Origin: Clostridium sp. CAG:343
GTDB lineage: Bacteria; Bacillota; Clostridia; TANB77; CAG-508
Reading direction: 5' to 3'
Assembly: GCA_000431335.1 (NCBI GenBank)
Contig: FR888054.1
Location: 96,307-160,306, forward strand
DNA length: 64,000 bases
The position numbers were made by a program, and so were the translations under genes. Each line of letters starts with the position of its first letter. The stretch's first letter is position 1. The notes below the pieces were generated by a model. The model did not search any database. It had not been told where the DNA came from and was given only the letters and a program-made list of their open reading frames with translations. Of the stretch, positions 1 to 38,535 are shown one piece after another.

Positions 1-163
1 AAATTAATTCTAATATTGTTACAATTAATTCTATTTTTAATAGTTTACTTGTTTTTATTTTATGCAATATTTCTTTAGATTTTTTCATATTATAAATCCC
101 TCCATTCTTACTTAATTAATTTGTATGAATAAAGGGCTTGTTCTTATGCTTATTTTCAATATT

Positions 164-1609
164 TTATACATTAACTTCATCTTTTCTAACTTCTATTTCC
201 TTTTGTCGATAAGATATAATATTGAATTCATCTTTTTTATTAAATACTATCATAATCACTTTTGTATAATTATCTTTAGCTGGTTTACCATATTCATTAA
301 TAGTAATACTTGCTTTATGTTTTTTAAGAGTATCAAAAGTGTTCATAAATCCCATTCCTGTTCCACCACTTTCTTTGTGGGTTGTACTTGGGATTTTTCC
401 TAATTTATGCAATGTATTTATTTCAAATTCAATTCCTGAATCATATATATAAATTGAGTATTGTCCGTCTATTTTTCCTATTCTTACTAAAATACTTCTA
501 TTACTATTATTAGAATAATTTACTGCAATTATTGCATTTTTCACATGGTCTGCTATTAATATTTCTAATTCCTCTTTTGTTATATGATTATTAATCATTT
601 GATATATGTTTCCATTTAATTGTACTTCAAACTTAATTTTATTTTTTATGCATTCTGATTTCATATAATTTAACATATCGTCTATTTCTGAAATGTTTGT
701 CTTTGGAATTTCTATTTCTGGTTCTTCTGATATTTGCTTTGTGATGTTGTTTAGCCTATTTTTTACATCTATTTCTTCTGCTATTTCGTTCTTTAATGCT
801 AGTTCATTTAGTTTGTATTCTAATGCTTTTTGTTTGTGTGCTATTGAATGACTTGTTTTACTAAAGTTTAGATTTTCTTGTTCTAATTGTTTTATTTCTT
901 TTTTCTTGTCCTCTAGTTCCTTTTTGGTTTCTTCTAAATCTTGTACTAACAACCTTTGCTTATAGTAAAGTTGTAATGATTTTTGAATTATGATGAACAT
1001 CATTATAGAAAAGATAATAAATCCAAAACCCAAAGCACTTGTAAAAGATTCATTATAATTAGTCAAAACAATAAAAGAAAATATTATAATTACACTTATA
1101 TTTAAAATTAACATATTAAAATATTCGTTTTTAAGTCTTTTATTTAAAAATATAATACCTTGTTTGAATCTTTTTATTTTTAAAATTCTATTAATTATTA
1201 TGCTATAACAAATTATTATCACTATTAGACTAATCCAATCATTATTAATATTAAAGATTATATTGGGTATAAAAGCTATTGCTACTGAAAGCAAAAATAC
1301 AATATAATTTATACTTAAAGAAAATATTATAATTAAAATCGAATAAACTATATCTTCTTTATTAATTATAGAAAATCCTATAGCCAAAGAAGTTGCTAAA
1401 AAAATCATACTATTTAATGAACTAGAACAAAATTTAATTTCTCCTCCTATAATGGCAATAACTATAATTATCATGTATGAAATAATTTTTTTATTATCTT
1501 TCTTATTTATAATTCTTATAGCAAAATTATATGTAAAAATACTGATACTTAAAATCTTTAATATATAAATAACTATACCTATATTCTCTAGATTATTTAT
1601 AAAATCCAT
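164..1609 (-). CDS. sensor histidine kinase, AgrC/VirS-like (multi-TM N-terminus, coiled-coil linker, GHKL HATPase_c_5-type C-terminus)
   Basis: Translation shows about 6 hydrophobic helices and a K/E-rich coiled coil. The C-terminus carries an N-box-like LIADHVKNAI, a G1 IYDSGIEF and a G2 GGTGMGF, typical of AgrC-family kinases. Confidence 0.6.
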   Translation of the reverse strand: MDFINNLENIGIVIYILKILSISIFTYNFAIRIINKKDNKKIISYMIIIVIAIIGGEIKFCSSSLNSMIFLATSLAIGFSIINKEDIVYSILIIIFSLSINYIVFLLSVAIAFIPNIIFNINNDWISLIVIIICYSIIINRILKIKRFKQGIIFLNKRLKNEYFNMLILNISVIIIFSFIVLTNYNESFTSALGFGFIIFSIMMFIIIQKSLQLYYKQRLLVQDLEETKKELEDKKKEIKQLEQENLNFSKTSHSIAHKQKALEYKLNELALKNEIAEEIDVKNRLNNITKQISEEPEIEIPKTNISEIDDMLNYMKSECIKNKIKFEVQLNGNIYQMINNHITKEELEILIADHVKNAIIAVNYSNNSNRSILVRIGKIDGQYSIYIYDSGIEFEINTLHKLGKIPSTTHKESGGTGMGFMNTFDTLKKHKASITINEYGKPAKDNYTKVIMIVFNKKDEFNIISYRQKEIEVRKDEVNV

Positions 1610-1918
1610 ATTTTATTTTTCCTTTTACAACATTTAATATTATACATATTATATATAAAAATAAAGGGATATTCAATATGAAATATTAATATCTCCTTAT
1701 TTTTATCCCTTTATTTTTATACTTTAACCAGCCCAATGGCTAATCCATCTCCAAAAGGCATTAAACCAATATCTCATTGTATTCACCACCTTTTCCATTT
1801 CGTTTTTTCTCTTGGTGTCAATAAAAAAATACCATTTATTACTTTCAAATAAACGGTATCTAATAATAGAAAAAAATGATGAAAAATGGCGAAAAATAAA
1901 AAAATCTAGTATTTACTA

Positions 1919-2707
1919 CTAGATCATCTTTTTTATTTTATCAACATAATAATAAATAAACTCCATAGGCGTTGGTATTCCTGTCTCATAATTCACTTTG
2001 GCTGTATAATATGTTGTTAAATCTTCTATTGATGAAACTCTCCAAGCATGTATAATTGCATTTTGAATTCCATTAGTTATAGTATTTCCTGATTTTTTAT
2101 ATATTTTCGTTAAATGTTGTATAACATTTATATTACTATTTTCGTTTTGTATTAAGTATAATATAGCATCATGAATATATTTTCTTCCTTTTAACTTTGC
2201 TGTTACTCCTATCAAATCCAACTCATGATAAATATGTTCTGAAATTTTACTTTCACTTTCTCGTAATTCCTCTTCTAAGTTTTTAATATCTGATTGTATT
2301 TCTATTTTTCTTAAATTAATGAATTTATTTAAGACTTGATTACATGAATAATTAGGATGATCTTTATATAATATAAGATCAACTCCATTCCTATGTAGTA
2401 TTTCATAAGTTCTTTTTGAGTTAACATGTGTAGTTACAATTACAATTGGTACATAATTCAAATTTAATTTTTTTAAGTTTAATAAAAATTCTAGAGAATC
2501 CGTGTTGCCTGATGTGCTATTATTTAGCTCTAAATCTAAAACTATACCTTCTGGGTGCTTCAACTTTACATATTTTAATCCTTCTATGTCTGAATCTGTT
2601 ATTCCAACTAATTCTATATCTTTTCTTTCTTTGATACAATTAACAAATCTATTACAGTCATCAATATCATCTTCTATAATTAGTATCTTCATTGCTTTAG
2701 ATTCCAT
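1919..2707 (-). CDS. response regulator: REC domain + Spo0A C-terminal-like DNA-binding domain (Spo0A paralog-type)
   Basis: N-terminus KILIIEDD...VLDLEL...IVTTH...ILYK has REC hallmarks. The C-terminus IGVTAKLKG..Y..AI...NAIIHAW...IPTPMEFIYYYVDKI aligns to the Spo0A_C signature (IGVPAHIKGY..AI...ERAIRHAIEVAW...KPTNSEFIAMVADKL). It lies directly upstream of the kinase on the same strand. Confidence 0.55.
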   Translation of the reverse strand: MESKAMKILIIEDDIDDCNRFVNCIKERKDIELVGITDSDIEGLKYVKLKHPEGIVLDLELNNSTSGNTDSLEFLLNLKKLNLNYVPIVIVTTHVNSKRTYEILHRNGVDLILYKDHPNYSCNQVLNKFINLRKIEIQSDIKNLEEELRESESKISEHIYHELDLIGVTAKLKGRKYIHDAILYLIQNENSNINVIQHLTKIYKKSGNTITNGIQNAIIHAWRVSSIEDLTTYYTAKVNYETGIPTPMEFIYYYVDKIKKMI

Positions 2708-2846
2708 ACTATACTCCTCCTTTTATTCTTATTATGGATAATATACCATAAAACCTCATTGAATACTACATTAATGTAGAATATTTTCCTATATATTTTC
2801 GGTTTTTTTAATATAAAATGAACAATAAGTATAAGGAGTGGTTTTT

Positions 2847-3209
2847 ATGAATATTAATCATAGCAGTAAAGAAATAGAATTAGATAAATTAGAACAAATA
2901 GAAAGAGGCAAAAGAATTAAATTTATTAGAGAAAATGAACTACATATGAATAAAACTCAACTTGCTAAAGAGATTGGCATTTCTGGACAATTCCTAGGAT
3001 TAGTAGAAGAAGGAAAAGGTAACCTTGTCTATAAAAGTATAAAAAAACTAAGAAATATAAGTGGACATTCAGCTGACTTTATTTTATATGGTTTTGATGA
3101 TACAACTATAACTAAAACCAAAGAATGTTTACAACATTATTCTGAAGAAGAATTTATTTATGCTACTAAAATAATTACACAAATTGCCACTTTCATAAAA
3201 AACACTTAA
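2847..3209 (+). CDS. XRE-family helix-turn-helix transcriptional regulator
   Basis: HTH_3-like segment MNKTQLAKEIGISGQFLGLVEEGKG. Start moved to ATG 2847, which follows the RBS AAGGAGTG; the ORF-track start falls inside that RBS. Confidence 0.5.
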   Translation: MNINHSSKEIELDKLEQIERGKRIKFIRENELHMNKTQLAKEIGISGQFLGLVEEGKGNLVYKSIKKLRNISGHSADFILYGFDDTTITKTKECLQHYSEEEFIYATKIITQIATFIKNT

Positions 3210-3323
3210 TGTTTTATGTATGTTTTATATTGTTTTGAATATATCGTATTGACTTTTTGTATTTCTTTAAATAAAATATTCCACATAAAGTACTAATATA
3301 TATACTAAAAGGTGGAATATTTT

Positions 3324-3509
3324 ATGATTACAAATTATTTATTTTTTTTAATAGCTTTACCAAAAGAAGAACTAAAAAAACAACTTTTAATTATTTTATT
3401 ATTTTTTGTGTTTATCATGTTGACTTATCTATTTTTAAATTATCTAAAATTAAAATTCACAAATGAAAATAGTAATTCTCTTTTTCAAAAATTTTTAAAA
3501 AGGCTTTAA
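3324..3509 (+). CDS. small hydrophobic membrane peptide (61 aa)
   Basis: Strong RBS AAAGGTGG sits 8 nt before ATG 3324. The peptide has two hydrophobic stretches and a basic tail. Function unknown. Confidence 0.35.
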   Translation: MITNYLFFLIALPKEELKKQLLIILLFFVFIMLTYLFLNYLKLKFTNENSNSLFQKFLKRL

Positions 3510-10107: not shown

Positions 10108-10113
10108 TTATAA

Positions 10114-11690: not shown

Positions 11691-12335
11691 TTATTCTAAA
11701 TATTCTTTTAATCCATCAATTATTTTATACACTTTGGTCATTGGATTTTTTCGTGATGCTTGTCCATCTTTATTTAATTCTTCCATATATTCGCAATTCT
11801 TTATTGCTGTATGTAGCCTTTCTTCACTTGTAGCTTTTTCAAAAATGTTTGTATCGTTTTTAGTATATTCCCCTAAACCTTTTTTCTGAAATTCTTTACT
11901 TAATTCTTGTAATACATTGTCCTTTGAAATATACCTATTTACTTTCTTAAAATGTGATAATAACCACAATTCAAAATTAGGATTAGACCAAGCCACATTA
12001 TAATCACAGGTTTTAATTGCTTTATCAAATTGTTCATCTGAGTAATCATCTTTATCAAACACAACCCAAACTTGTCCATATCTTTTATTTGAATAATTTA
12101 CAAATTTATCTGTATATTTTACTAAAGCTGTGGTATTTTCACCTGTTCCTTTTATTTCAATATTAGGAATTAATACATCAACTTTGCTTCCATACTTTTC
12201 ATTTATCTTTTTCTTTAATCCATTAAAATAATTGGGTTCAGTTTGCTTCCCTTCACATACAATTAAGTAATTAGCTGGTGCAAGCCTCTTACTTTTTAAT
12301 CTGTCTTTTCTTGATATATTTCTATTATTCTTCAT
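11691..12335 (-). CDS. RloB-like (Toprim-like) protein, AbiLii-like
   Basis: N-terminus LIVCEGKQTEPNYF is the hallmark of the RloB family. It overlaps the upstream ATPase gene by 11 nt. Confidence 0.6.
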   Translation of the reverse strand: MKNNRNISRKDRLKSKRLAPANYLIVCEGKQTEPNYFNGLKKKINEKYGSKVDVLIPNIEIKGTGENTTALVKYTDKFVNYSNKRYGQVWVVFDKDDYSDEQFDKAIKTCDYNVAWSNPNFELWLLSHFKKVNRYISKDNVLQELSKEFQKKGLGEYTKNDTNIFEKATSEERLHTAIKNCEYMEELNKDGQASRKNPMTKVYKIIDGLKEYLE

Positions 12336-13557
12336 GTATTATATCAAATTCTTCCAATACTGGAATAGCACCATACCTTCCAGTTAAATAGTCTTTATTG
12401 TATGTTGCATCATTTCTTACTTTTTTACCTGCATTTTTATCATCTTCTAATATATAATCAGATAATGCATATATTTCTGAAATTCCATCTTTGTCTTTTT
12501 CTGCAAACCATATTTCATCTCTTCTAAATGTTTCTTTATTTAAGTTTACCGTATCATGTGTTGAATATATTAACTGTCCATTTCCTATATTGGTCAGACT
12601 ATTATGAAACAAGTTAATAATATATCTAGTTAATAGTGGATGTAATTTTGCATCTAATTCATCAACAAATAATACCATTCCATTTTTTAATGCATCCATA
12701 AAGAAATCAAATAAGTGAAACATTTTTCTCGTACCATTAGATTCTAAATAAAATGGCAATGCTTTTAACTTTCCATTTTCTCCCCTGTGAAGAACTTCAA
12801 TATCTATAATACCATTATTATTTTTAACAGCTTCTATTGAATCTGGTGTAGTTTTTATTCCTTCAATTCCAGAATCAAATGTCTTTATAAATTTTAATAA
12901 TTCTTTTTTATAAATTTCATCGCTTAGTATTTTTAATGAAACTCTGTTATTAATAAATCTTTCAAAATTTGGATTACCTAAGTCTAAATACATGCTATTC
13001 ACAAACCAGTCATATACATTGCTAAAATCCTCATTATTTCTATCTATTTTGCTATATATATTTAAGAATAATGTTCTTTCATCTATATTCACTAAATCTG
13101 AAATTTTATTAGGTTTCATTGATACATTGTTATTTTCTCTTTCGAAAATAACATAGAATTTATTTACCCTTTTCTCAAATAACCATTCTGAAATAATTGT
13201 ATCCTTTAAAACTTCAAAACCATATTTATATATTTTATTATTTTTAGCTAATATTTCTACTTCTAAAGCTATTGGATCATTATTTATCATAAAACTATAA
13301 ATATTTTCTTCATCTATTGGAGAATTCTTTTTAGAGTCATCACTTACCAATATTCTTTTTTTCATATAGTCAAAAGCTTGTAACACATTAGTTTTTCCAC
13401 TAGCATTGGCACCATAAATTGCAGATACTTTCAAATATTCACCATTTTCTGTTTTAGCCACATTATATTCATGTTCTTTTAATGATGTTGCTTCCATATC
13501 TAAACAATTTTCATTTTTAAAAGATTTGAAATTTTTAAAACTAAATCTTATTAACAT
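12325..13557 (-). CDS. AAA ATPase (AAA_21/AAA_15 ABC-like), AbiLi-like
   Basis: Walker A GANASGKTN, a split ABC-type ATPase layout, and Walker B LFVDELD. Confidence 0.6.
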   Translation of the reverse strand: MLIRFSFKNFKSFKNENCLDMEATSLKEHEYNVAKTENGEYLKVSAIYGANASGKTNVLQAFDYMKKRILVSDDSKKNSPIDEENIYSFMINNDPIALEVEILAKNNKIYKYGFEVLKDTIISEWLFEKRVNKFYVIFERENNNVSMKPNKISDLVNIDERTLFLNIYSKIDRNNEDFSNVYDWFVNSMYLDLGNPNFERFINNRVSLKILSDEIYKKELLKFIKTFDSGIEGIKTTPDSIEAVKNNNGIIDIEVLHRGENGKLKALPFYLESNGTRKMFHLFDFFMDALKNGMVLFVDELDAKLHPLLTRYIINLFHNSLTNIGNGQLIYSTHDTVNLNKETFRRDEIWFAEKDKDGISEIYALSDYILEDDKNAGKKVRNDATYNKDYLTGRYGAIPVLEEFDIIHEE

Positions 13558-15490: not shown

Positions 15491-17059
15491 CTATTTATTA
15501 ATCTTTATCGTCAAATTATTATATCCATATTTATTTAATAATCCTAATAAAGCTTGTCCATCTATAAGAGTTAGAGGTTTATCTTGTGCAAAATCATATG
15601 CTTCTTTTCCATAAAAACTTGTAGTAACAAGAATTCCTTTTGTAGCGCCTTCATGTATCATTGTACCATATAAATCTCTTACAGCGGATACTGGAACAAC
15701 ATTATTATATCTTTTAGCTTGTATAACAAACTTTCCACCTCTTATTGGATCATCATCAAAAGCAATTGCATCAACGCCTCCATCATGACTTGCTTGTGTT
15801 ACTTTAACTTCTCCACCATTAACATTAAACATTTTATCAAATAATTCACGTATAAAATATTCAAAATCCTCCCATGGCATGTTTGCTAGATTAAAACCAT
15901 CTAAATCAATATTAGCAACATCTTTACTCTCTATAAATCTAGAATCTTCTCTATTAATTTTCATATATGGAATAACCGGTGTTAGGGATAAAATATTCGG
16001 TGCAAAAATTCCTTTTAATCCTTTTATACATTCTTTATAATCAACATTTTCAATATTTAAATCCAAGAATTTTTCTTTAGTAGACTCTACTGTAATTATA
16101 CAACTTTCAGCTTCTTTCCCTGTACTTTTGTCAATATACTTAATCCATCCATTATATACAATTTTATCAATATTGTTATTATCATCTGAACGTAATATAT
16201 CATTCATAGTTTTCAAACAACACATAAAAATGATATCATTATAAAACTTCTCAAACTTTTTGTCTGTAAGCTTTATTTCATCAATTTCATTCCTTGTACT
16301 AACATATTTATGTTGGATGATTCTTGGGACAGTATCAGCATTTGGCAAGTAATATGCAATAATTAGTGTTTTACTTTCTTTTAAATATTGTATTTCGAAA
16401 TCTTTAACAACTTCGCTTGGCATATAAATATTTTCAATAACATATTCAAAATAATCCTCTATCTGTTGGATATTACCTTCGTTATATTCTTTTCTATTAT
16501 TTTCAACTTGTTTGTTCTTTTCTTCTTGTTCTTTTAAAAATTTTTCTTTTTGCCTATCATATTCTTCTCTTTCTTCTTTTAGTTTCTTATTATATTCATC
16601 ATTTCTTTTTAGTAATTCTGCATTTGCTTCTTCTTCTTTTTTTATTCTAAAATTTTTCCTATTAGTAGAAAAAATTTCTATCCAGCTTTTTTTGGGGACA
16701 TTTAATTCTTCTTTTATTTCTTCTATTGTGTCTCTTTTTAACTTTGATTCAAATTTTCTAAATTCGGATTTATCTATTAAACTGTCATAATATTTTTTTG
16801 ATTTCTGAATATTTCTTTTATTTATAATATTTTTATAACTTTCTATCTTCTTTTCATCGTTTTTTGTTAATTGTTCGGCTTTTCTTTTCATTTCTTCTTT
16901 ATTTTGTTTAGCAATCTCTCTTTTTACTCTTTCGTCCCAAATTCTTTTTTGATTTTCAACCTTGGCATCAAGTTCGTACCTTGTTGGTGCACTAATTTCC
17001 TTGCTTACTCCTAAAAAGTCATTACTTAACACTACTCTATAATAGTTTCTATATGCCAT
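15491..17059 (-). CDS. Mrr_cat-type restriction endonuclease-domain protein with N-terminal K/E-rich coiled coil
   Basis: C-terminus FEYFIRELF...GGVDAIAF...VIQAKRY matches the Mrr catalytic (PD-(D/E)xK) domain. A long KE-rich helical region sits upstream. Confidence 0.6.
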   Translation of the reverse strand: MAYRNYYRVVLSNDFLGVSKEISAPTRYELDAKVENQKRIWDERVKREIAKQNKEEMKRKAEQLTKNDEKKIESYKNIINKRNIQKSKKYYDSLIDKSEFRKFESKLKRDTIEEIKEELNVPKKSWIEIFSTNRKNFRIKKEEEANAELLKRNDEYNKKLKEEREEYDRQKEKFLKEQEEKNKQVENNRKEYNEGNIQQIEDYFEYVIENIYMPSEVVKDFEIQYLKESKTLIIAYYLPNADTVPRIIQHKYVSTRNEIDEIKLTDKKFEKFYNDIIFMCCLKTMNDILRSDDNNNIDKIVYNGWIKYIDKSTGKEAESCIITVESTKEKFLDLNIENVDYKECIKGLKGIFAPNILSLTPVIPYMKINREDSRFIESKDVANIDLDGFNLANMPWEDFEYFIRELFDKMFNVNGGEVKVTQASHDGGVDAIAFDDDPIRGGKFVIQAKRYNNVVPVSAVRDLYGTMIHEGATKGILVTTSFYGKEAYDFAQDKPLTLIDGQALLGLLNKYGYNNLTIKINK

Positions 17060-20418: not shown

Positions 20419-21255
20419 TTAGTCGCTTATGCTAGCTTTTTCTTTTTGATTTTTATCATCTTCTTTTAGTTCAATTCCATAACACATTCTATATAATTTT
20501 TGAATAATAGCATTGGATAATTCTTTATCATTACTCTGATAAAATCTATGTAATAAACTTTCCTTATTAAATCTAGTTGTTATTATAATTGGTAGTTTAT
20601 TTTCATTTCTATTTTCTATAATTGTATATAATTTATCTAGAGCCCACTGGCTTATTTTTTCTGTTCCTAAATCATCTATTACAACCATATCTGTATTTGA
20701 AAATAATTCTATTAATTCATTTTCTGACTTTGAATTATCTTTAAAAGTTTCTTTGATCATATCTAACAATGATGATAACCTCCCCATCAACACTATTTTA
20801 TCTTCTTTAATTAATTCATTTGAAATTGATGCTGCTAAATGTGTTTTTCCTACGCCTGTATTTCCAGTAATAATAAGTCCATTTTCTTGTTTGTTTTCGG
20901 TACATTTTTTAGTATAATCTTTTGCTATTTCAACTTCATTTTTATTAGAATCTGTTACTTTAAAATTGTTAAAATTATAATCCTTTAGTCTTTTACTAAT
21001 GTAATTTTGCGAATAAAACTGATTGATAATTTCCCTATAATGTTCATTCTTTTTCTGCTCTTGAACTTCTAAATCAATTCCTTTCCAAAATTCAACAGAT
21101 TCCTTACAAGTACATCTTTCATATTCAATGGAATCTGGAGATATATTAGTATATAAATAATCTAAGCCTATTGGTTTTAATTCTTTTCCACAAAATTTGC
21201 ATTTATTGTGAAAATTCTTTTGATAATTATTACATTTTGTATTCTCTAAATCCAT
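20419..21255 (-). CDS. DnaC/IstB-like AAA+ helicase loader with N-terminal Cys-rich zinc-finger
   Basis: Walker A GNTGVGKTHLA and Walker B VVIDDLGTE. The N-terminus has C..C...C.C. Confidence 0.6.
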   Translation of the reverse strand: MDLENTKCNNYQKNFHNKCKFCGKELKPIGLDYLYTNISPDSIEYERCTCKESVEFWKGIDLEVQEQKKNEHYREIINQFYSQNYISKRLKDYNFNNFKVTDSNKNEVEIAKDYTKKCTENKQENGLIITGNTGVGKTHLAASISNELIKEDKIVLMGRLSSLLDMIKETFKDNSKSENELIELFSNTDMVVIDDLGTEKISQWALDKLYTIIENRNENKLPIIITTRFNKESLLHRFYQSNDKELSNAIIQKLYRMCYGIELKEDDKNQKEKASISD

Positions 21256-23401: not shown

Positions 23402-24747
23402 GTTGTGTAAATAAATCCTTCCGTGATAAAATATAAAATATCAAGGAGGGATTTTTCTATGGGTAAAAAAATAGAAAAAGAAAAAAATGAAATAGTAGAG
23501 GAGTTTTTTAGAAGGAATGATCCAAAAAATATTAAATCCATGAATGATATGTACACAGCCTGGAAAGATTTCTTTGCCCCTGCTTTTCAACAATTGTTGG
23601 ATGCTGAAATGGAAGCAAAAATTGGTTATTCCAAAAACGAAAGAACAGATAATAATAATTATCGAAATGGATATTATCCAGAAAGAACTGTAGCAACAGA
23701 AATGGGAGATATTCCAGTAAAAGTTCCTAGAGATAGAAACGGAGAAATTGATTCCGATTTAGTGCCTAAATAATCAAGAACAGCAAATGGTTTTGATGAA
23801 AAAGTAATATCTATGTATGCATTAGGAATGTCTGATAGGGACATTCAGGAACAAATAAAGGAGATATTTGGCTGTAATCTTTCACCAGATATGATAAGTG
23901 ATATAACAGATAAAATTATACCTGAAATACAAGAATGGCAAAAAAGGAAATTAGAAAGTGTATACCCTATAGTATTTATTGATTCTACTCATTTTCATGT
24001 TAGAGATAATGGACAGATAGTAAAAAAAGCAACCTATGTTGTGTTAGGAATTGATAAAGATGGAATGAAAAAAGTTTTAACAATAACAATTGGAGAAAAT
24101 GAAAGTGCAAAATATTGGATGACTGTATTAAACGAACTTAAAAATCGCGGAGTACAAGATATTTTAGTATTATGTGCAGATGGATTGACAGGGCTTAAAG
24201 ATGCAATATCAGCAATATACCCTAAGACGGAATATCAAAGATGTATAGTGCATCAAATAAGGAACTCTTTAAAGTATGTACCATATACAGATAGAAAAGA
24301 ACTTGCTAATGATTTAAAAACAGTTTACAAAGCAAGTACAGAGGAATTAGGGTATACTAACTTATTAGAGTTGGAAGAAAAATGGAAACATAAATATCCT
24401 GGTGCGATTCAAAGTTGGATAGATAACTGGGATGTACTTTCAGTATTCTTTAAATTTTCTACTGAAATAAGAAAAATAATGTATACAACAAGTGCGATAG
24501 AGAGCTTAAATAGTACCTATAAACGAATAAATCGAAACAGAAATGTATTTATGTATGAAGGCAGAATATAAAATAAAGCCTAAAAATAATAGGCTTAAGA
24601 AGGATTTTTCTTAAGCCCTATTAAACTTACACAACTTTTTCTAAAATATTGATTTTTTAGAAAAATATTATTAAAATAATGTTAATAATAAAAATATTAA
24701 ATTTTTTTAAGTTATCAATCGGAAGGAAATCCGATTTACACAACATT
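23402..24747 (+). mobile_element. IS256-family insertion sequence remnant
   Basis: Terminal inverted repeats run from gttgtgtaaat..atccttcc at 23402..23424 to its reverse complement at 24721..24747. An extra IRR-like copy lies at 24626..24641. The interior encodes an IS256-type transposase. Confidence 0.6.
23423..24571 (+). pseudogene. IS256-family (Mutator-like) transposase, interrupted by an in-frame TAA at 23771..23773 and C-terminally truncated
   Basis: The two ORFs are in the same frame and separated only by a TAA where intact homologs have Gln/Arg (DLVPK*SRTANGFDEK). The protein ends about 30 aa short of family length. Confidence 0.65.
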
Positions 24748-26909: not shown

Positions 26910-28103
26910 ATGGCTGGGAGTATAGAAAAAAGAGGAAAAAATAGTTACAGGCTAACAGTATCTGAAGGATTTGACTTAAATGGAAACCCAATGATACATA
27001 GAAAGACAGTACATGGAACTAAAAAAGATGCAGAAGTTGAACTAGCTAAATTTGTTACTGAAGTACAAAATGGCTTAGTAGTTGATGGTAAATCTCTTAA
27101 ATTTTCTGAATTTACTGAAATATGGAAACGAGATTATGGCTCAAAAGAGCTTGCGCCTTCTACATATAAACGTTATTGTAGAATGTTAGAAACAAGACTT
27201 TTACCATACTTTGGTCATTTCTACATTAATAAAATTAGACCAACTGACATTATGAAGTTTTATGATTTACTTGAAAAAGATACTCAGTTAGTTAGAAAAA
27301 AAGGTAACAATGGTACAAAAACTAAAAAGCCTTTGTCTGGTAAAACAATTTTAGAACATCATAGGTTACTTCGTGCAATGCTACACAGAGCAGTTTATTG
27401 GCAACTTATTGTTAGTAATCCTGCTGAACGTGTTCAAGCTCCTAGAGCAAAAAAGCCAAAAAGAAGATCTTATGATGATGAGCAAACTAAAATATTACTA
27501 GAAAATTTAGAGCAACTTTCTATAGAAGATACTAAATATAAAGTTGCAATCATTCTAACGGTTTTCACAGGCGTTCGTTTAGGTGAACTAATGGGATTAG
27601 AATGGCAAGATATTGATTTTAAAAATGGAATTATTAGTATTAATCGTTCTAGTCAGTATCTATCAGATATGGGAGTCTTTACAAAAGTTCCAAAAACAGA
27701 AAGTTCCATTAGAGAGATTGCAATACCCGAATTTATCATTTCTTTACTTGAGGAATATAAGTTATGGTATGAAGAACAAAAATCGATTTATAACGAATTG
27801 TGGAACGATTCTAATAGGTTATTTGTACAAGCAGATGGCAAACCAATGCATCCTTCTACCATTAGCAAATGGTTTGTAAAATATGTTGGTCAAATAGGTT
27901 TACCTGTAATTAATTTTCACGGATTAAGACATACAAATGCAAGTTTACTAGTTGCACAGAATATTGATATAGCAATAATTTCTGCGAGACTTGGTCATGC
28001 ACAAATAAGTACTACACTTAATTTTTATGTGCATCCACTACTTTCTCATAACAGAAAAGCTGGATATGCACTAGAAAACTTATTATTACCAACAAGGTCT
28101 TAA
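26910..28103 (+). CDS. int: tyrosine recombinase / phage-type integrase
   Basis: N-terminal AP2-like arm-binding segment. The C-terminal catalytic motifs R...HGLRHT...Y(HPLLSH..R) are present. It sits at the right end of island A. Confidence 0.8.
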   Translation: MAGSIEKRGKNSYRLTVSEGFDLNGNPMIHRKTVHGTKKDAEVELAKFVTEVQNGLVVDGKSLKFSEFTEIWKRDYGSKELAPSTYKRYCRMLETRLLPYFGHFYINKIRPTDIMKFYDLLEKDTQLVRKKGNNGTKTKKPLSGKTILEHHRLLRAMLHRAVYWQLIVSNPAERVQAPRAKKPKRRSYDDEQTKILLENLEQLSIEDTKYKVAIILTVFTGVRLGELMGLEWQDIDFKNGIISINRSSQYLSDMGVFTKVPKTESSIREIAIPEFIISLLEEYKLWYEEQKSIYNELWNDSNRLFVQADGKPMHPSTISKWFVKYVGQIGLPVINFHGLRHTNASLLVAQNIDIAIISARLGHAQISTTLNFYVHPLLSHNRKAGYALENLLLPTRS

Positions 28104-31533: not shown

Positions 31534-32010
31534 TTATGAAATTATTGGATTTTCATTTTTATCAGGATACTTATCAATATTAAATAAGTTTAATATTGAT
31601 ACTATATCTGTTACATCAATATCTCCATGCACTTCATCATCCTGAAATCCAATTGTGACTAAATCGTTTTTATTGTCATATTTTACTGATTTAGCAGAAA
31701 TCGTTAATCCCCTATTTAACAAATAAAAATTGTTACTCTTTCCATTAAGTAATGATGCCCTTATTTTTTTGGCAACTGCTGTAGTAAGTTTTTGTTCCCT
31801 TGGATTAGTTTCCATTGGAATATCTTTAAGAATGTCTTTTATATCACAAATCATTATATACATTTCTGAATTATCCATATAGTTGTTTAAATTGTAAAAT
31901 GGATTTGGAATTTTCCTAAAAGATTTTGTTTTAAAATTTAAAAGTTTCATTTTTTCCTCCTTTTCACATATAAGTGATTTTTTATTAGAATACACAATAT
32001 CCATTGTCAT
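31534..32010 (-). CDS. hypothetical protein, probably the 5' fragment of a disrupted gene
   Basis: The ORF ends abruptly. The 330 bp downstream contain stop-interrupted reading frames that look like its decayed continuation. Confidence 0.3.
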   Translation of the reverse strand: MTMDIVYSNKKSLICEKEEKMKLLNFKTKSFRKIPNPFYNLNNYMDNSEMYIMICDIKDILKDIPMETNPREQKLTTAVAKKIRASLLNGKSNNFYLLNRGLTISAKSVKYDNKNDLVTIGFQDDEVHGDIDVTDIVSILNLFNIDKYPDKNENPIIS

Positions 32011-33008: not shown

Positions 33009-33084
33009 CGCGGGGTGGAGCAGTTGGCAGCTCGTTGGGCTCATAACCCAAAGGTCGGTAGTTCGAGTCTACCCTCCGCAACCA
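33009..33084 (+). tRNA. tRNA-Met (anticodon CAT), initiator-type
   Basis: Cloverleaf is readable. 5' CGCGGGG pairs with 3' CTCCGCA and carries the C1:A72 mismatch typical of initiator tRNA. Anticodon loop CTCATAA, T-arm GGTAGTTCGAGTCTACC, and CCA is encoded. Confidence 0.8.
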
Positions 33085-33087
33085 ATT
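33037..33087. repeat. 51-bp direct repeat (attL, within the intact tRNA)
   Basis: gggctcataacccaaaggtcggtagttcgagtctaccctccgcaaccaatt. Confidence 0.6.
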
Positions 33088-33242
33088 CGAGAGTTTTTAC
33101 TTAAAGGGATATCCCTTTAAATGTAATTTTAATACAGAGATTTTACTATAAAAAGTAAGGTCTCTTTTTTGTATTCTATAAACACTTTCATACTCTATAG
33201 ATTTGCCCTTCAGCAAAATTTAAAGATTTGGAGGTGCATAAT

Positions 33243-33944
33243 ATGAGTAAAAAAGAACAACCAAATTATTATGCAATAATACCTGCAACAGTTAGGTATG
33301 ACACTAATCTAAAATATACAGAAAAATTATTATATGGAGAAATTACAGCATTATCCAATAAAAATGGTTATTGTTATGCTCAAAATAAATACTTTGCAGA
33401 TTTATATAATGTAACAGCCGTCTCAGTTAGCAGATGGATTTCACATTTGCAACAGCTTGGATATATAAAAACAGAAGTTATAAGAAATGAAAATAAAGAA
33501 ATAGTATCAAGAAATATTTACATTGTAGATATCCCCTATTATCAAAAAAATCAATACCCCTATATACAAAAAAGTATAGAGGGTATTAACAAAAATGTTA
33601 AAGATAATAATATAAAATATAATATAGATGATTTATTTCATTTAATTATAAATAATAGCAACGAAATTCCAGAAGAATTTTTAGCAATAATTGATAGGTT
33701 AGAATTTAATTATAAACCTTATATGCTTCAATATATGAAAGAAGATAAAATTAATATGGTAAAAAATGTTATATATGTTTTATATGATTTGTATAATAGT
33801 AATTTTCAATTTTTATTGCAAAATGTAAGTAGAGAATATTTAATAAATTTATATTTTTTAGCAGTGGATAATAAACCAGATACCTTATTAAATTATTACA
33901 AAAAATCTATCATAAATAGTAGTACAAACTATAAAAAAATATAA
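33243..33944 (+). CDS. RepA_N-type replication initiator protein
   Basis: N-terminus YAIIPATVRYD..L...EKLLYGEI..LS...GYCYA...YFADL..V...VSRWI..L...GYI fits the firmicute RepA_N pattern. Start set at ATG 33243 after GGAGGTG. Confidence 0.45.
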   Translation: MSKKEQPNYYAIIPATVRYDTNLKYTEKLLYGEITALSNKNGYCYAQNKYFADLYNVTAVSVSRWISHLQQLGYIKTEVIRNENKEIVSRNIYIVDIPYYQKNQYPYIQKSIEGINKNVKDNNIKYNIDDLFHLIINNSNEIPEEFLAIIDRLEFNYKPYMLQYMKEDKINMVKNVIYVLYDLYNSNFQFLLQNVSREYLINLYFLAVDNKPDTLLNYYKKSIINSSTNYKKI

Positions 33945-34164
33945 GTTTTACAGTAACAAAAAGTATGGCAAAATTAGCTTTTTTTCAAGAAGAAATTTGG
34001 CATATTTTAGAGTACAATGAAATGCATATATTTCAAGTGTTTTATAATTTTTATTACATGTTTTTTGAAGTGGAGGTAGGTTGCAATATCGGAAGATATG
34101 GCATACCTACCAAAAGGACAATTTATTGATAAACTTTTAGTTCGTATTGGAGGTGATGATAATT

Positions 34165-35058
34165 TTGAATTATTTTTTGAAAGATAAAGAGGAGATTTCT
34201 TTAATAAAATTTATTGCAAAATATCAATGTTTAAATGTAAATAGTGCAAAATATTTTTTTAGTAGTAGTAGATATTATAGAAATAGAATTAAAAATCTAA
34301 TAGATAAAAATTTTTTAAGAAAAATTAAGTGGATACTGGTATTAGGAAAATCAGGAATTCAATATGTAAAACTATTAAATTTTGAGTACAACAAATTGAA
34401 TAAAAACCAAAAATATAGAGAAAGACTATTAAAATTAAGTAACATAGCTACTTTTTATTATAATTGTAATACAGTTGATTTTATACCATCATTTGCAATA
34501 AAAGATAAAACAATACTTACGACAACAGGTAGAAGATTTATAGGAATATTTAATATAAATGGATTTGAATACTTGGCTTATCAAATTTTTAAAGAACATG
34601 ACAATAGATATATTGAATCTGTAGCCTTTGATATACAAAAAGAAATGAAATATAGCAATATTATTATTTTAGTAAATGATATAAACAGAATAGATTTCAG
34701 TTATTTTGCCTTTGGGAAGAATCAAATATTAGTAATTGAAGATAATGATATTAATAGAGAAAAATTAAAATATTTACATAGTATGAGATGGAAAGAATTA
34801 ATAGATAAGTATTATAGTAATGTTCATTTATCTGAATATAGCTTTTGTGAATATTCAAATAATAAAGATAAATTTATTAATACTTTTTACTTTATAGATA
34901 CTGAAAAGATTAACAGATTTAGATATTTTATAAATGAGAATTCCACTAAAAGAACATATATTATTTGTGATGCAGAACTGGAAACAAAATTACGAAAAGA
35001 ACTACCTGATGCTAACTATTGTATGGTGGATTTTGAAAAATATATTGATAAAGAGTGA
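34165..35058 (+). CDS. replication-relaxation (Replic_Relax)-like protein
   Basis: N-terminal winged-helix-like pattern (EISLIKFIAKYQCLNVNSAKYFF...RNRIKNLIDKNFL). The start is uncertain; TTG 34165 lies 9 nt after GGAGGTG. Confidence 0.35.
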   Translation: MNYFLKDKEEISLIKFIAKYQCLNVNSAKYFFSSSRYYRNRIKNLIDKNFLRKIKWILVLGKSGIQYVKLLNFEYNKLNKNQKYRERLLKLSNIATFYYNCNTVDFIPSFAIKDKTILTTTGRRFIGIFNINGFEYLAYQIFKEHDNRYIESVAFDIQKEMKYSNIIILVNDINRIDFSYFAFGKNQILVIEDNDINREKLKYLHSMRWKELIDKYYSNVHLSEYSFCEYSNNKDKFINTFYFIDTEKINRFRYFINENSTKRTYIICDAELETKLRKELPDANYCMVDFEKYIDKE

Positions 35059-35414
35059 AGATATTATTGTTGTTAGTTGGAGAGTAATAACTTAGATTAC
35101 ATTATAAGCAGAGTGTTTCGAGATTTAGTGCCACTCGGCTATAATTTGGAAAACATATATCAAATTATAAAGATTTTTAAATTGTGATTTTAATGTTGAT
35201 TATACATAAAAAAAGTTAAAAATAGAGATGGTAAAATTGAAGAATGCTGGTAATGAAAATTTAAATATTACAATCTTTTTGCTATTATATGGAACTATTT
35301 TAAAAAATATTATAAACTTTGAAAGGATATATAAAGTTAATGGACTCATATAAATAGAAAAATAAATGTTAGTTACAGATTTTATTATTACAAGACATAG
35401 GAAGGGGAAAATAA

Positions 35415-35951
35415 ATGGAAGAATTAGTGGTAAAGGCTAAGAAAGGAGATAAAGAAGCTTTTACACAAATAGTGTTAATATTAAAAGAAGATTTATACAA
35501 GATAGCAAAAACTAGAATTACAAATGAAGCAGATATAGAAGATGCCATTCAAGAAACAATGATTGAAGCATATAAATCTATAAAAAAGATAAAGGATGTA
35601 AGTAAAATAAAGCAATGGATAATTAAAATATTGATTAATAAATGCAATAGAATATATAGAAGAAAATACAAAAAGGACATTTCCATAGACGAATATAATT
35701 TAGAAAAATATATTATTCTAAATGGATATAAAGATGTAGAAAACGATTTAAGTTTTTACTCTTTATTAAAGAATCTAAATTATAAAGAAAGAATAATATT
35801 AACATTATATTACATGGAAGAATATTCAGTAAAGGAAATTAAAGAAATAACTAAAATGAACGAAAACACAATAAATACTTGTTTGCATAGGGCAAGAAAG
35901 AAAATAAAAGAAGATATAGGAGGAGAATTTGTTGATGAAAGAGTCAAGTGA
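35415..35951 (+). CDS. sigma-70 family ECF-type RNA polymerase sigma factor
   Basis: Region 2 (DAIQETMIEAYKS...QWIIKILINKC) and region 4 (ERIILTLYYMEEYSVKEIKEITKMNENTINTCLHRARKKI). Confidence 0.65.
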   Translation: MEELVVKAKKGDKEAFTQIVLILKEDLYKIAKTRITNEADIEDAIQETMIEAYKSIKKIKDVSKIKQWIIKILINKCNRIYRRKYKKDISIDEYNLEKYIILNGYKDVENDLSFYSLLKNLNYKERIILTLYYMEEYSVKEIKEITKMNENTINTCLHRARKKIKEDIGGEFVDERVK

Positions 35952-37095
35952 GGAAAAAATCAAACAAATTTTAAAAAGCAAAATAAATATTCCAAGTGGG
36001 TATGTTGATGCAATTAATACAGCGTTCATTAAAAAGGGAAAAAGTAATCATTTTATAAAAATATTAACAACTACTTGTGCAGGAATTATATTAACCAGCG
36101 GAATTGTTTTGGCAGGATATAATATCTATCAAAAAATATGGAAAGAACCAGAGATGGTTAAAAATAGCGATATAGAAAAGTCATTAGAAAATAAAGAAAT
36201 CTCAAAAGAGGATCAGGAGAAGTTAATTACAACTGAAGAGGCAAAGAAAAAATCATTAGAAATATTAAATGCACTTGGATATGAAGAATTAAAAATTGAA
36301 GAAGCAGAACTTAAAAATTCAAATAATACAATTTATTTTGATATAAAAATAGTAGGCAATAACAAGTTTAATGTTTTAATTGATGGTAAAAACGGAAAAT
36401 TAATTGGAATTAATAACTTAAATAATATTTATAATGATATAAGTCAAATATCTGAAATGGAAGCAAAAGAAGATGCTGTATATATAAGTGAAAATTTAAA
36501 ACTAGATAACGAAAAATATGAATTAAATTATTGTAAAGAAGAAAGCAGTTGTTATGGAGAAAAGCAATATAAAATATGGGTAGCGAGTTTTAATAAAAAG
36601 TATGATGAAAGATATAATCCCTATGACAGTATGAAAATTTACTTTTATGAAAGCAATAAAATCATAAAATTAGATTCTGTAATAATCAATAAAGATGAGA
36701 ATTTTCAAAATAATGAAATAAAAATTAGTGAAGATGATGCAAAAAGCATTTCAATAGAAAAAGAAAAACAATTAAGTCAATTAGAAATTATTGATATAGC
36801 CTCTGAATTAGAAATAAGAAAAATGAATACATATATTTTCAAATTAGAAAATAATATTGATGATGCTAATATAGATGAAAGTAACGAAGAAACTACTATA
36901 TATAAAACAGAAAATATTACGCGAAATGTATGGATAGTGAGAATAAAGCACAATAAGCCGGAAAATATAAATTTTAGCACAAGCCTAGAATATAATAAAC
37001 AAATGGATAAAAAATATTATATTGATGCAACCACAGGTGAAATAATTGGAGGAGAAGACTTTTTTGAAAAAATGAACAATCCATTGTATAACTAA
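35935..37095 (+). CDS. single-pass membrane protein, putative anti-sigma factor (large extracytoplasmic domain)
   Basis: Overlaps the sigma gene. One TM helix is predicted at about residues 48-70, with a short cytoplasmic N-terminus. Confidence 0.4.
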   Translation: MKESSEEKIKQILKSKINIPSGYVDAINTAFIKKGKSNHFIKILTTTCAGIILTSGIVLAGYNIYQKIWKEPEMVKNSDIEKSLENKEISKEDQEKLITTEEAKKKSLEILNALGYEELKIEEAELKNSNNTIYFDIKIVGNNKFNVLIDGKNGKLIGINNLNNIYNDISQISEMEAKEDAVYISENLKLDNEKYELNYCKEESSCYGEKQYKIWVASFNKKYDERYNPYDSMKIYFYESNKIIKLDSVIINKDENFQNNEIKISEDDAKSISIEKEKQLSQLEIIDIASELEIRKMNTYIFKLENNIDDANIDESNEETTIYKTENITRNVWIVRIKHNKPENINFSTSLEYNKQMDKKYYIDATTGEIIGGEDFFEKMNNPLYN

Positions 37096-37101
37096 TAAGC
37101 C

Positions 37102-37133
37102 AAGAAGGAGCTGAAATACAACTCCTTCTTTTG
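37102..37133. terminator. bidirectional rho-independent terminator (aagaaggag...ctccttctt + T-run)
   Basis: Perfect 9-bp stem followed by TTTT. Confidence 0.5.
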
Positions 37134-37156
37134 GTAGAAAGCTAGAATATGGTTAA

Positions 37157-37624
37157 TTAACTAATATAGTACCAGTATTCAATAAAAGCTCGTCTGTAAT
37201 ATCCAGGCGGATTTGAGATGCTACTTGCATCAAAGAAGATTTGGACTTGTTGACCGTAACTTACTGGGCAAGTAACCTCAAAGTCAACAAGACCACTTCT
37301 ATTATCATCCTTTGTAATACTAGCATTTCCAATTGCCCCACCATATGCATACCTTATTTGTGCAGTTAATCTAATGGGGCTTACAGCAGCATGAGCATCT
37401 TCTCCATAAAAATGCCCTACTATGTGTAAAGTACCTGTTCTTTTGATTGTTTTTACCTGCGTTAAGTTGTTATCTGTCATGTGCATAGAACCAACATAGG
37501 TTTTAGTTGAACTTGACCAATCTTCGGCACCAGCTGCAAATGCAGGAACTGCAGATGTTATTATCATTGCACACATAAGTACAAAACTAATAATAAACCG
37601 TGTTGCTTTATTTTTTACCTTCAT
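37157..37624 (-). CDS. small secreted protein, paralog A (signal peptide; conserved C-terminal ...NPPGYYRRAFIEY)
   Basis: N-terminal signal peptide with an AFAAGA cleavage region. Shares blocks with 38704..39195 (DNNLTQVKTI / DNLTPVKTI; GQQVQIFFDASSISNPPGYYR / GQRIQVYWDISSQYNPPGPYR). Locally higher GC. Confidence 0.5.
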   Translation of the reverse strand: MKVKNKATRFIISFVLMCAMIITSAVPAFAAGAEDWSSSTKTYVGSMHMTDNNLTQVKTIKRTGTLHIVGHFYGEDAHAAVSPIRLTAQIRYAYGGAIGNASITKDDNRSGLVDFEVTCPVSYGQQVQIFFDASSISNPPGYYRRAFIEYWYYIS

Positions 37625-37812
37625 AATAAAATATCCTCCTTAAAATGCATCAGTAGTATTTTTCTAGCTCTCTACCTGTATCTATTCAAAAAGGATAGAT
37701 ATTAATTATATATATAACTAGAACAGAAAAAAGTAAAAAAAGTAAAAAAAAGTAAAAATGTGAAAGATAAAAGTATATAAAAGGACTCTTATATTATAGG
37801 GGAAGTGAGAGT

Positions 37813-38535
37813 ATGACAAATGTTCTAGTAGTAGAAGATAATTTTTATCAATCAAAGCAAATTATTAATTATTTATCTCAAAGAAATAAAGAATTAAAAT
37901 TATATAGTATGGTTTATTCTGGAGAAGAAGCATTAGAAATAATAGAAGAACAAAAAGTTGATATTATTATACTAGATTTAAAATTAAAAGGGATGAACGG
38001 AGTAGATGTTATTAAAGAAATTGAATACAAAAAGATAGAAAAATATAGAAGTTCCATAATTGTTGTTTCTGGAGATTATTCTATGATAAGACAAGTTTAT
38101 AATAGTGATTACATATATAGATGCTTTTTAAAACCTTTTAATTTTAATGAGATTGAAGAAAGTATAGAGAAAATTATCTGTGAAAATAATTATGAAATGG
38201 AAACAGATGTAAAATCAAAAATAAACAAAGAATTGAAAAAATTAAAATTTAATTTTACATATAAGGGAACAAAATACTTATCTGAATGTATATATCAAAT
38301 ATATAAATCAAACGAATCGGATGTAGATAATTTATCTAAAGAGTTTTATCCTATTGTGGCAGAAAAATATAATAAATCGGTTAATACTATTTATGGAAAT
38401 ATAAAGCAGGCAATTAATGCAATGTTTTTTGATTGCGAAGAGAGAATATTAAAAGAATATTTTAAATATAGTTTTGTCGTTAAGCCAAAGCCAAAAGAAA
38501 TTGTTTATATAATATTAAATAAATTATATGGATAA
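37813..38535 (+). CDS. response regulator: REC + Spo0A_C-like domain (second copy in the window)
   Basis: REC motifs VLVVEDN...IIILDLKL. The C-terminus GTKYLSECIY...NIKQAINAMFF...KPKPKEIVYIILNKL is Spo0A_C-like. Confidence 0.55.
   Translation: MTNVLVVEDNFYQSKQIINYLSQRNKELKLYSMVYSGEEALEIIEEQKVDIIILDLKLKGMNGVDVIKEIEYKKIEKYRSSIIVVSGDYSMIRQVYNSDYIYRCFLKPFNFNEIEESIEKIICENNYEMETDVKSKINKELKKLKFNFTYKGTKYLSECIYQIYKSNESDVDNLSKEFYPIVAEKYNKSVNTIYGNIKQAINAMFFDCEERILKEYFKYSFVVKPKPKEIVYIILNKLYG

Follow-up and report, generated by a model that had tools for sequence, protein, structure and literature searches.

A Spo0A_C-domain response regulator, its adjoining kinase and a tiny tryptophan-rich peptide gene: a putative peptide-signalling cassette of uncultured gut Clostridia

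The locus considered here lies at one end of a stretch of 64,000 nucleotides from Clostridium sp. CAG:343 (assembly GCA_000431335.1, contig FR888054.1, positions 96,307 to 160,306), which is referred to throughout as the window and has a GC content of 25.5%. It holds a histidine kinase, a response regulator (RR1) that joins a receiver (REC) domain to a Spo0A_C-type DNA-binding domain, a divergently transcribed gene for a small XRE-family protein and, between the regulator and the kinase, a very short peptide gene with a strong ribosome-binding site, a promoter-like element and a terminator of its own. This last gene was overlooked in an earlier note made from the sequence alone, and its presence turns the interpretation to peptide signalling. 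A second regulator of the same domain composition, RR2, is found elsewhere in the window. The genes concerned are the following.

164..1609, minus strand: histidine kinase of 481 amino acids (aa), with about seven hydrophobic segments between aa 10 and 208, a coiled DHp region and a GHKL ATPase domain
1724..1777, minus strand: peptide gene of 17 codons encoding MRYWFNAFWRWISHWAG, in the 310-bp gap between RR1 and the kinase and on the same strand
1784..1790, minus strand: Shine-Dalgarno (SD) sequence GGTGGTG within AAAAGGTGGTGA, 6 nt before the peptide ATG
1919..2707, minus strand: RR1, response regulator of 262 aa, REC plus Spo0A_C-type DNA-binding domain
2838..3209, plus strand: small XRE-family helix-turn-helix protein of 120-123 aa, likely start ATG 2847, divergent from RR1
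37813..38535, plus strand: RR2, 240 aa, the second REC plus Spo0A_C regulator, of a family unrelated to that of RR1

That the window encodes two such regulators had been proposed in the earlier note, and both open reading frames (ORFs) lie above the Pfam cutoff of 25 bits for Spo0A_C (PF08769), RR1 with 54.6 and RR2 with 47.0 bits, whilst their scores for Response_reg are 30.0 bits (cutoff 30.2) and 59.0 bits, respectively. Against TIGR02875, the NCBIfam equivalog model for full-length Spo0A, RR1 reaches 70.0 and RR2 68.7 bits, well below the cutoff of 200. When RR1 is aligned to solved Spo0A C-domains, the segment NTITNGIQNAIIHAW, which is invariant in the RR1 family, occupies the position of SRVERAIRHAIEVAW, so that the recognition helix reads KKSGNTITNGIQNAIIHAW in place of the Spo0A signature; in RR2 the helix is NTIYGNIKQAINAMF, and its family has a conserved form of its own, ntIxgnIkqaxnxM. 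The AlphaFold model of the RR1 C-domain (pLDDT 77-89) superposes by Foldseek on 1fc3 and 1lq1 with TM scores of 0.70-0.79 and root-mean-square deviations of 3.1-4.0, a comparison confined to the C-domain of RR1 because the REC domain was poorly modelled. In the RR1 receiver E12/D13/D14, D58, T92/T93 and K115 are invariant across the family, and the RR2 receiver is likewise intact, yet only 55 receiver residues of the two proteins align, with 27% identity. Pfam and NCBIfam scans of the flanks of RR1 found no spoIVB/recN-type context, the neighbours that are kept being the XRE gene, the peptide gene and the kinase, and no sporulation gene was found among the window ORFs scanned. Judged by sequence, then, RR1 and RR2 are real Spo0A_C-domain regulators and neither is a genuine spo0A, since both scores fall so far short of 200 bits and the recognition helix differs. 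This agrees with the argument already made from context that neither is the spo0A gene next to spoIVB.

How far, then, does the Spo0A_C domain extend beyond the master regulator of sporulation, to which it was held to be normally restricted? A search with the RR1 C-domain among 1.84 billion representative proteins returned 422 clusters at 50% identity. Among the best 150 of these, 91 aligned hits of 230-320 aa are mostly REC plus Spo0A_C proteins of 250-290 aa whose helix conforms to S[VI]ERAMQNAIxxAW, and the Spo0A signature helix is absent from all 91. The supposed restriction is therefore abandoned.

The kinase retains the catalytic boxes of its class. H254 and H258 (SHSIAHKQ) are invariant in the DHp region, as are N358 of the N box (KNAI), D390-x-G392 (DSG) and G416-x-G418-x-G420 (GGTGMG) in the ATPase domain. 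Generic HATPase_c is the only match for this protein and for 27 of its 28 orthologs, the AgrC-type model HATPase_c_5 being matched in just 1 of the 28, and no HisKA model has a match. A profile of the kinase family searched against the PDB found no AgrC chain, its sole match being the KinB ATPase domain 3d36 (E 0.003); the AlphaFold model of the kinase, made from a shallow alignment, was unusable (pLDDT 39.5). The kinase thus resembles AgrC in topology only and is, by sequence, not a member of the AgrC family: the term AgrC-type describes a topological likeness, because it is the generic HATPase_c that matches and the profile search brings up no AgrC chain. The label AgrC/VirS-like given to it at first does not survive.

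Directly downstream of RR1 stands the kinase, an adjacency kept in 63 of 67 species loci and in 42 of the 52 more distant loci with room for a kinase. Together with the conserved catalytic boxes and receiver residues, this suggests that the kinase and RR1 are a cognate two-component pair, as was proposed for the adjoining genes from the outset. The accompanying idea of an operon holds in so far as the kinase follows RR1 directly; it fails in that the locus is no simple operon, with the peptide gene, its terminator and a kinase promoter lying in between.

The peptide ORF with the same ribosome-binding site recurs at 66 of 81 related species loci under a strict pattern, and at about 69 of the 81 overall, the remainder being mostly truncated contigs; it is the only ORF of its type in the 64-kb window. 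Across the RR1 clade the peptides are 13-18 aa long and share the consensus M-x-W-[YFW]-[DE]-x-[FL]-x-x-W-[ILV]-x-x-W-x-G, in which the tryptophans are spaced i, i+7, i+11. An amphipathic helix is predicted, and no more than 0.6% of shuffled sequences reach the hydrophobic moment of the four peptide alleles of this species. A leader, a signal sequence and a double-glycine motif are all absent from the peptide, and most alleles are without cysteine. Some loci hold more than one such gene: three in tandem at L066:3131-3590 (MSWYDALLNWISRWM, MLKWYDEFLRWYSHWIR and MRQWYEAFWKWVSHWAG) and two in L120 (6169 and 7080).

An alignment of 67 RR1-kinase intergenic regions reveals the architecture around the peptide gene, which is given here with that of the XRE/RR1 spacer.

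1898..1923, minus strand: RR1 terminator hairpin (TCTAGTA...TACTAGA) with T-run, overlapping the RR1 stop codon
1866..1896, minus strand: three tandem 10-bp direct repeats, TTTTCGCCAT / TTTTCATCAT / TTTTTTCTAT, presumed RR1 binding sites
1823..1859, minus strand: conserved hairpin (ATACCGTTTATT / AATAAATGGTAT) with T-run, 3' arm TGgTAtttT
1657..1712, minus strand: hairpin (AAAGGGATA...TATCCCTTT) with T-run, read as the terminator of the peptide transcript
1648..1676, minus strand: kinase promoter-like TTGAAT-17-TATAAT, its -35 within the 3' arm of the peptide terminator
2708..2837, no strand assigned: divergent XRE/RR1 control region, the XRE-RR1 spacer
2740-2748, in that region: RR1 extended -10-like TGGTATATT
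2766-2779, in that region: palindrome CTACATTAATGTAG, specific to the window
2783-2792, in that region: conserved ATAGGAAAAT, reverse complement of the TTTTCCTAT box type
2814-2819, in that region: XRE -10, TAAAAT

The core of the repeats, TTCGCCA, is the reverse complement of the TGNCGAA 0A box, and the middle repeat position is the best conserved (TTTTYRCCAT). In the 95 bp upstream of the peptide promoter TTCGNCA occurs at 5.8 per kb, as against 0.23 per kb across all loci, a 25-fold difference, and the boxes stand there in a single orientation with every pair 10 or 20 bp apart. Spo0A contacts G2, C4 and G5 of TGTCGAA (PMC3485338), and the presumed RR1 box, TGGCGAA, retains all three. From these features we infer that phosphorylated RR1 (RR1~P) may bind the repeats at 1866..1896, and the suggestion that such regulators bind 0A boxes gains some support from these tandem, putative RR1 sites. 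Nothing ties RR1 or RR2 to the rewiring of sporulation or virulence regulons that had been imagined for them; the only target to which the sequence evidence appears to point is the cassette's own peptide gene. A scan for tandem boxes elsewhere gave, with a relaxed pattern, mostly noise in DNA of 25% GC, and the few strict matches (L019, L043) share no target gene.

The hairpin at 1823..1859 shows compensatory changes at 4 of 7 pairs, and G-U to A-U changes point to folding in the sense strand; its invariant bases (T, G, T, A, T) coincide with the key positions of an extended -10 element, TGnTAnnnT. The conserved hairpins of the cassette are read as probable terminators, and the kinase has, across species, the promoter TTGATT-17-TATAAT, in which TATAAT is conserved. 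With its own promoter-like element and terminator, and with a separate promoter for the kinase, the peptide gene would form its own small transcription unit. The XRE-RR1 spacer carries a reverse-oriented box of the TTTTTCTAT type and TATGGTAT elements like the extended -10 of the peptide gene, whilst its palindrome is not conserved across species; an Rfam scan of 1..3400 gave nothing credible.

The strongest pointer to the function of the peptide comes from variation within the species. Homologs of the kinase in the protein database are often 84% identical over 84% of the query. Four syntenic loci (L166-L169), with the order CBAH, rubrerythrin, XRE, RR1, peptide, kinase, DUF6512, comM and dprA, are set against the window below.

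1001..1776, minus strand: hypervariable allelic segment, comprising the peptide from codon 2, the spacer and kinase residues 1 to ~203 (membrane sensor)
All flanking genes, XRE and RR1: 98-100% nucleotide identity to the window
Repeats, hairpin and SD: 98-100% nucleotide identity
Kinase residues 204-481: 98-100% nucleotide and 98-99% amino acid identity
Peptide codon 2 to kinase residue ~203 (~1776 to ~1001): 45-70% nucleotide identity
Sensor domain, the N-terminal ~215 aa of the kinase: 41-48% amino acid identity

The breakpoints of this segment are sharp, and the peptide is 41-48% identical within the species, just as the membrane sensor of the kinase is. A set of 117 kinase representatives with 96% or more identity in the cytoplasmic part contains four or more sensor alleles, mutually 39-54% identical, and the peptides of four alleles read MRYWFNAFWRWISHWAG, MRYWFEAFCRWISHWAG, MSWDDFWRWISKWF and MSWYDALLRWIGRWM. 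Across species, too, peptide similarity tracks sensor similarity when kinase-domain and RR similarity are controlled for (partial rho 0.21, permutation p about 0.0005), and the sensor is the fastest-evolving part, its median identity between species being 34%, where the kinase domain has 64% and the regulator 68%. Such joint replacement of peptide and sensor speaks for the peptide as the ligand that the membrane sensor binds, and the pattern is analogous to that of agr specificity groups. In one sample with the allele MRYWFEAFCRWISHWAG (L170:1780-2696) RR1 is split into ORFs of 99 and 194 aa, which may reflect either a pseudogene with a frameshift or a fault of the assembly.

The detectable relatives of RR1 number 1485. 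Its orthologs, with 65-86% identity, occur in 128 species-level genomes, all of them metagenome-assembled genomes of uncultured gut Clostridia, from rabbit, mouse, human, goat and chicken; the genomes in question are about 1.7 Mb in size with 25% GC. Across the 80 loci fetched, conservation is limited to four genes, namely the divergent XRE gene, RR1 itself, the tiny ORF and the kinase, the flanks being housekeeping genes that differ between loci. The XRE gene is confined to the RR1 clade, absent beside distant relatives, and its product of about 120 aa is without a peptide-binding repeat domain. Just 3' of it and on the same strand is a hydrophobic ORF of 61-65 aa (3312-3509, plus strand), present in 21 of the 80 species loci and called as a gene in the syntenic loci L166-L170, which may belong to the cassette in this sub-lineage. 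On the other side, directly after the kinase, a gene for a DUF6512 polytopic membrane protein runs off the window (1-86, minus strand; L002:8607-9203); it takes this position in the window's species and in about 18-20 of the 80 loci, and is followed in syntenic loci by comM, dprA and yraN. At L032, L055, L059 and L068 an RR1 ortholog (67-75% identical) stands without an adjoining kinase, peptide or XRE gene, and such RR1-only loci, found in other contexts, for example pcrA ... radC-mreBCD, may be orphaned or second copies.

The arrangement reaches well beyond this clade. Eighty distant metagenomic loci were fetched with 12 proteins, their regulators being 28-45% identical to RR1; they range from 29 to 65% GC and come from termite-gut, human-gut and fermenter samples. 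The kinase directly downstream in 42 of the 52 loci with room is of the same family (130-247 bits against the family profile), and about 40 of the 80 have an SD-preceded, Trp-rich ORF of 13-17 aa in the gap between regulator and kinase, on either strand. Examples are MWADIWATITRWLKI and MWARIWATISLLVGI on the same strand, and MWKFWVWLRGLLVI, MSSLYWKIWELIFKNY and MWRWWQKLWGWLSY on the opposite one; the opposite-strand cases identify the peptide ORF as an independent gene rather than a leader peptide or upstream ORF. One distant locus (L126) has AACGAAAACC repeats (CGAAAA type) with 10-bp phasing upstream of its peptide gene. Full-length REC plus Spo0A_C-like proteins, which align with 87-98% of RR1 at 22-25% identity, are also encoded on human-faecal contigs named 'Bacteriophage sp.' (MT835504.1, MT835715.1, MT835781.1 and others), and these go beyond the truncated, C-domain-only forms reported for phages. 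A plasmid origin for the locus was rejected, as the plasmid collection held no near-identical DNA to window positions 1-6000; RR2 had no match there either.

On the observed parts, with their conservation, intact catalytic residues, co-variation and cis elements, a model can be raised in which export, the direction of regulation, DNA binding and the regulon are the inferred steps. In this model, to which we give a probability of roughly 0.6, the locus is a self-contained autoinducing peptide-signalling two-component cassette. The leaderless, amphipathic, Trp-rich peptide of 17 residues would be made from its own small transcription unit, exported and then bound by the polytopic membrane sensor of the kinase, which would autophosphorylate on H254 or H258 and pass the phosphate to D58 of RR1. 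RR1~P would bind the tandem 10-bp repeats (TTTTYRCCAT, 0A-box-like) through its Spo0A_C-type domain and, the repeats lying about 40-75 bp upstream of the extended -10 promoter of the peptide, would raise peptide synthesis, giving autoinduction; presumably RR1~P would control further genes too. With peptide and sensor varying together in allelic specificity groups within a species, a strain would respond to no variant but its own.

Several points weigh against this model. Among the conserved genes of the cassette there is none for export, proteolysis or modification, and since the peptide lacks both a leader and a signal sequence its secretion has to be supposed. Short and amphipathic as it is, it could act from within the membrane of its producer. 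The binding of RR1 to the repeats is putative; its recognition helix is unlike that of Spo0A although the boxes are 0A-like, and the strict box is present in only 25 of the 67 loci, with relaxed versions in the rest. The assignment of the peptide promoter is likewise indirect, as a terminator-like hairpin stands between the boxes and the peptide gene. Target genes beyond the peptide gene were not identified in the box scan, and four species hold RR1 without the kinase.

What else could the peptide do? It is conceivable, albeit rather unlikely, that it never leaves the cell and is a modulator on the membrane of its own producer, a regulator-controlled feedback through the transmembrane domain of the kinase in the manner of MgrB and PhoQ. 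The lack of an export or processing gene, the form of the peptide as a leaderless amphipathic helix of 13-17 aa and the position of its gene beside the presumed regulator sites would all suit such a role, and co-variation of peptide and sensor is equally expected of any tight physical partnership. However, divergent peptide and sensor alleles kept inside otherwise 99-100% identical genomes are the pattern of between-cell specificity groups, a diversification for which internal feedback offers no obvious reason, and the three tandem peptide genes of L066 fit signal output better than stoichiometric regulation. Less probable again is that the peptide is chiefly an effector, a surfactant or toxin like the phenol-soluble modulins (PSMs) or a leaderless antimicrobial, controlled or sensed by the two-component system and maybe, like nisin, its own inducer. 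The agr regulator of staphylococci directly controls leaderless PSMs, and the Trp-rich, amphipathic, leaderless and short peptides, made from their own small transcript with strong translation signals, have something of this character. But no conserved immunity or transporter gene is found nearby, 13-17 aa is shorter than known PSMs or leaderless bacteriocins, and the exact co-replacement of peptide and sensor argues that recognition by the kinase is the property under selection. An effector role is in any case compatible with the autoinducing cassette and does not exclude it.

We consider it quite improbable that RR1, RR2 or both occupy the boxes of Spo0A itself and rewire or disturb the sporulation regulon, or that RR1 is the divergent Spo0A of its lineage. 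A Spo0A_C fold, the profile matches of both proteins, the retained G2, C4 and G5 of the presumed RR1 box (PMC3485338) and the near universality of RR1 in its clade speak for it; the scores of 70 and 68.7 bits against 200, the replacement of the signature helix by a different, family-invariant one, and the grouping of the RR1 C-domain with clusters of the 'ERAMQNAI' type, none with the Spo0A helix among the aligned proteins of 230-320 aa from the best 150, speak against it, as do a neighbourhood of kinase, peptide gene and XRE gene instead of spoIVB/recN and the lack of sporulation genes among the window ORFs scanned. There is scarcely any case for the small ORF as a Trp-codon leader peptide in an attenuator that controls the kinase gene, even though its three Trp codons precede a hairpin and T-run that lie before the kinase: 3' of that hairpin stands a conserved promoter belonging to the kinase itself, non-Trp positions of the peptide are conserved, the peptide co-varies with the sensor domain and, at many distant loci, the ORF is opposite in strand to the kinase, a fact by which attenuation is largely refuted.

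RR2 belongs to another setting altogether. It sits, as had been recognised beforehand, inside a mobile element, here called island B, bounded by attachment (att) repeats and with an integrase.

33034..42944, no strand assigned: island B, a 9.9-kb integrative element in tRNA-Met, carrying RR2
33034-33087 (attL) and 42891-42944 (attR): 54-nt direct repeats of the 3' part of tRNA-Met
41455..42741: tyrosine integrase
35415..35951: ECF sigma factor
35929..37095: PepSY-type membrane protein
37157..37624, minus strand, and 38704..39195, plus strand: paralogous signal-peptide proteins of 155 and 163 aa flanking RR2, 35% identical and without a family match
39391..40584: PcsB-like M23 peptidase

The island also carries an HTH_36 protein. 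The RR2 family is small, with about 40 clusters, and a homolog with 60% identity is carried by a similar element that encodes an integrase and a relaxase of the Mob_Pre family. Mob_Pre is found in elements with RR2 homologs; in the window itself no relaxase could be recognised. Neither a kinase nor a peptide gene is found near RR2, which is thus an orphan, and the secreted proteins that flank it are not homologous to the neighbour of its homolog in L081. It may be that island B is a mobile module for cell-wall lysis or competition, controlled by RR2.

The remainder of the window has a varied content. A choloylglycine (bile salt) hydrolase family gene (4223-5197, minus strand; Pfam CBAH, 360 bits) fits a gut-adapted organism. 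It is followed by a run of defence-type genes at 5877-21745, which includes a DEAD/Helicase_C protein of 1169 aa, RloB with an AAA_21 ATPase (11691..13557), an Mrr-type restriction endonuclease (15491..17059), a helicase-like protein of 653 aa and a DnaC/IstB-like ATPase (20419..21255). Further along are an IS256 transposase fragment (23813..24571), a second tyrosine recombinase (26910..28103), an AIPR fragment (31534..32010), an ORF of 905 aa without a Pfam match (43025..45742), its neighbour of 1943 aa (47143-52974, minus strand) and a ComEA gene (53148..53852).

The candidate peptide cassette invites comparison with several known systems. As in agr, ComCDE, PlnABCD and Fsr, a peptide gene adjoins a kinase with a polytopic sensor and a response regulator, autoinduction is suggested by direct repeats that precede the peptide promoter, and the hypervariable segment is exactly the peptide and the sensor domain, with several alleles per species. 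Yet no part is homologous: the kinase is without the HPK10/HATPase_c_5 signature, the output of the regulator is Spo0A_C and not LytTR, the peptide of 13-17 aa has neither leader nor double-glycine motif, and the cassette has no AgrB-like gene and no processing or export gene of the ComAB type; with usually no cysteine in the peptide, a thiolactone is not possible. The cassette would work like agr or com in function, by analogy, and yet it has none of the homologous parts by which agr is recognised. Streptococcal ComS/XIP and SHP, which act with ComR and Rgg, are likewise short, leaderless, Trp-containing peptides encoded next to a regulator, and they share with the cassette peptide its hydrophobicity and the absence of modification. 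Those peptides are, however, re-imported and bind cytoplasmic RRNPP receptors, whereas the cassette peptide co-varies with a membrane kinase, and the XRE protein of the cassette, at about 120 aa, has no peptide-binding repeat domain and is missing outside the RR1 clade. In the MgrB-PhoQ and SafA-PhoQ pairs, too, a tiny hydrophobic or amphipathic peptide, likely controlled by the regulator, probably contacts the membrane domain of a kinase. MgrB and SafA are larger, at 47-65 aa, with a true transmembrane helix, and are encoded outside the two-component locus, unlike the cassette peptide, and neither is known to undergo allelic co-replacement with the sensor.

With Spo0A itself (TIGR02875; 1FC3, 1LQ1) RR1 shares the combination of REC and Spo0A_C, a similar length and the fold of the C-domain (TM 0.70-0.79), and its presumed operator resembles tandem 0A boxes at 10-bp spacing. 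It departs from Spo0A in its score (70 bits against a cutoff of 200), in its helix (TITNGIQNAIIHAW, not RVERAIRHAIEVAW), in having no spoIVB/recN context and in possessing a dedicated adjoining kinase and peptide gene, where Spo0A stands alone and receives its phosphate through a phosphorelay or from orphan kinases. Paralogs have been reported before: two spo0A paralogs in 10 of 118 genomes, with three in Anaerostipes hadrus (Galperin et al., bioRxiv 10.1101/2022.02.25.481979), a second Spo0A in C. thermocellum (PMC4890492), with 49% identity to that of B. subtilis, and Spo0A_C genes of truncated form in gut phages (PMC10294663), whilst one study has treated the Spo0A_C domain as a unique marker of Spo0A (PMC6136694). 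The extra copies were treated as related to sporulation, with no cognate kinase, peptide gene or allelic groups described, and the C. thermocellum paralog is far nearer to Spo0A than either RR1 or RR2. In a search confined to open-access literature, no account came up of a Spo0A_C regulator accompanied by a cognate kinase, a tiny peptide gene and alleles of differing specificity.

The wider claim is one on which we would put about even odds: that the cassette represents a widespread and previously undescribed class of quorum sensing in Clostridia, built from an unprocessed, leaderless, Trp-rich pheromone of 13-17 aa, new polytopic kinases and a large sister family of Spo0A with an 'ERAMQNAI' helix, and sorted into agr-like pherotypes. 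The habitats of the proposed class are the gut and other anaerobic settings. Peptide quorum sensing in the Firmicutes is known in a few architectures, namely agr, the com or bacteriocin type with HPK10 and LytTR, and the RRNPP receptors, and the cassette would add to them one made from unrelated parts, present in more than 100 uncultured species of gut Clostridia and in distant relatives. Such a system would be directly testable, as the peptides are short enough to synthesise, the natural alleles provide specificity controls and the presumed operator falls within 30 bp. It would also correct the assumption that a Spo0A_C response regulator is Spo0A (PMC6136694), an assumption used in calling spore-formers and in interpreting 'spo0A' in phages and mobile elements. 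If the interpretation is true, the Spo0A_C fold is no marker of sporulation, and Spo0A has a large sister family devoted to peptide signalling.

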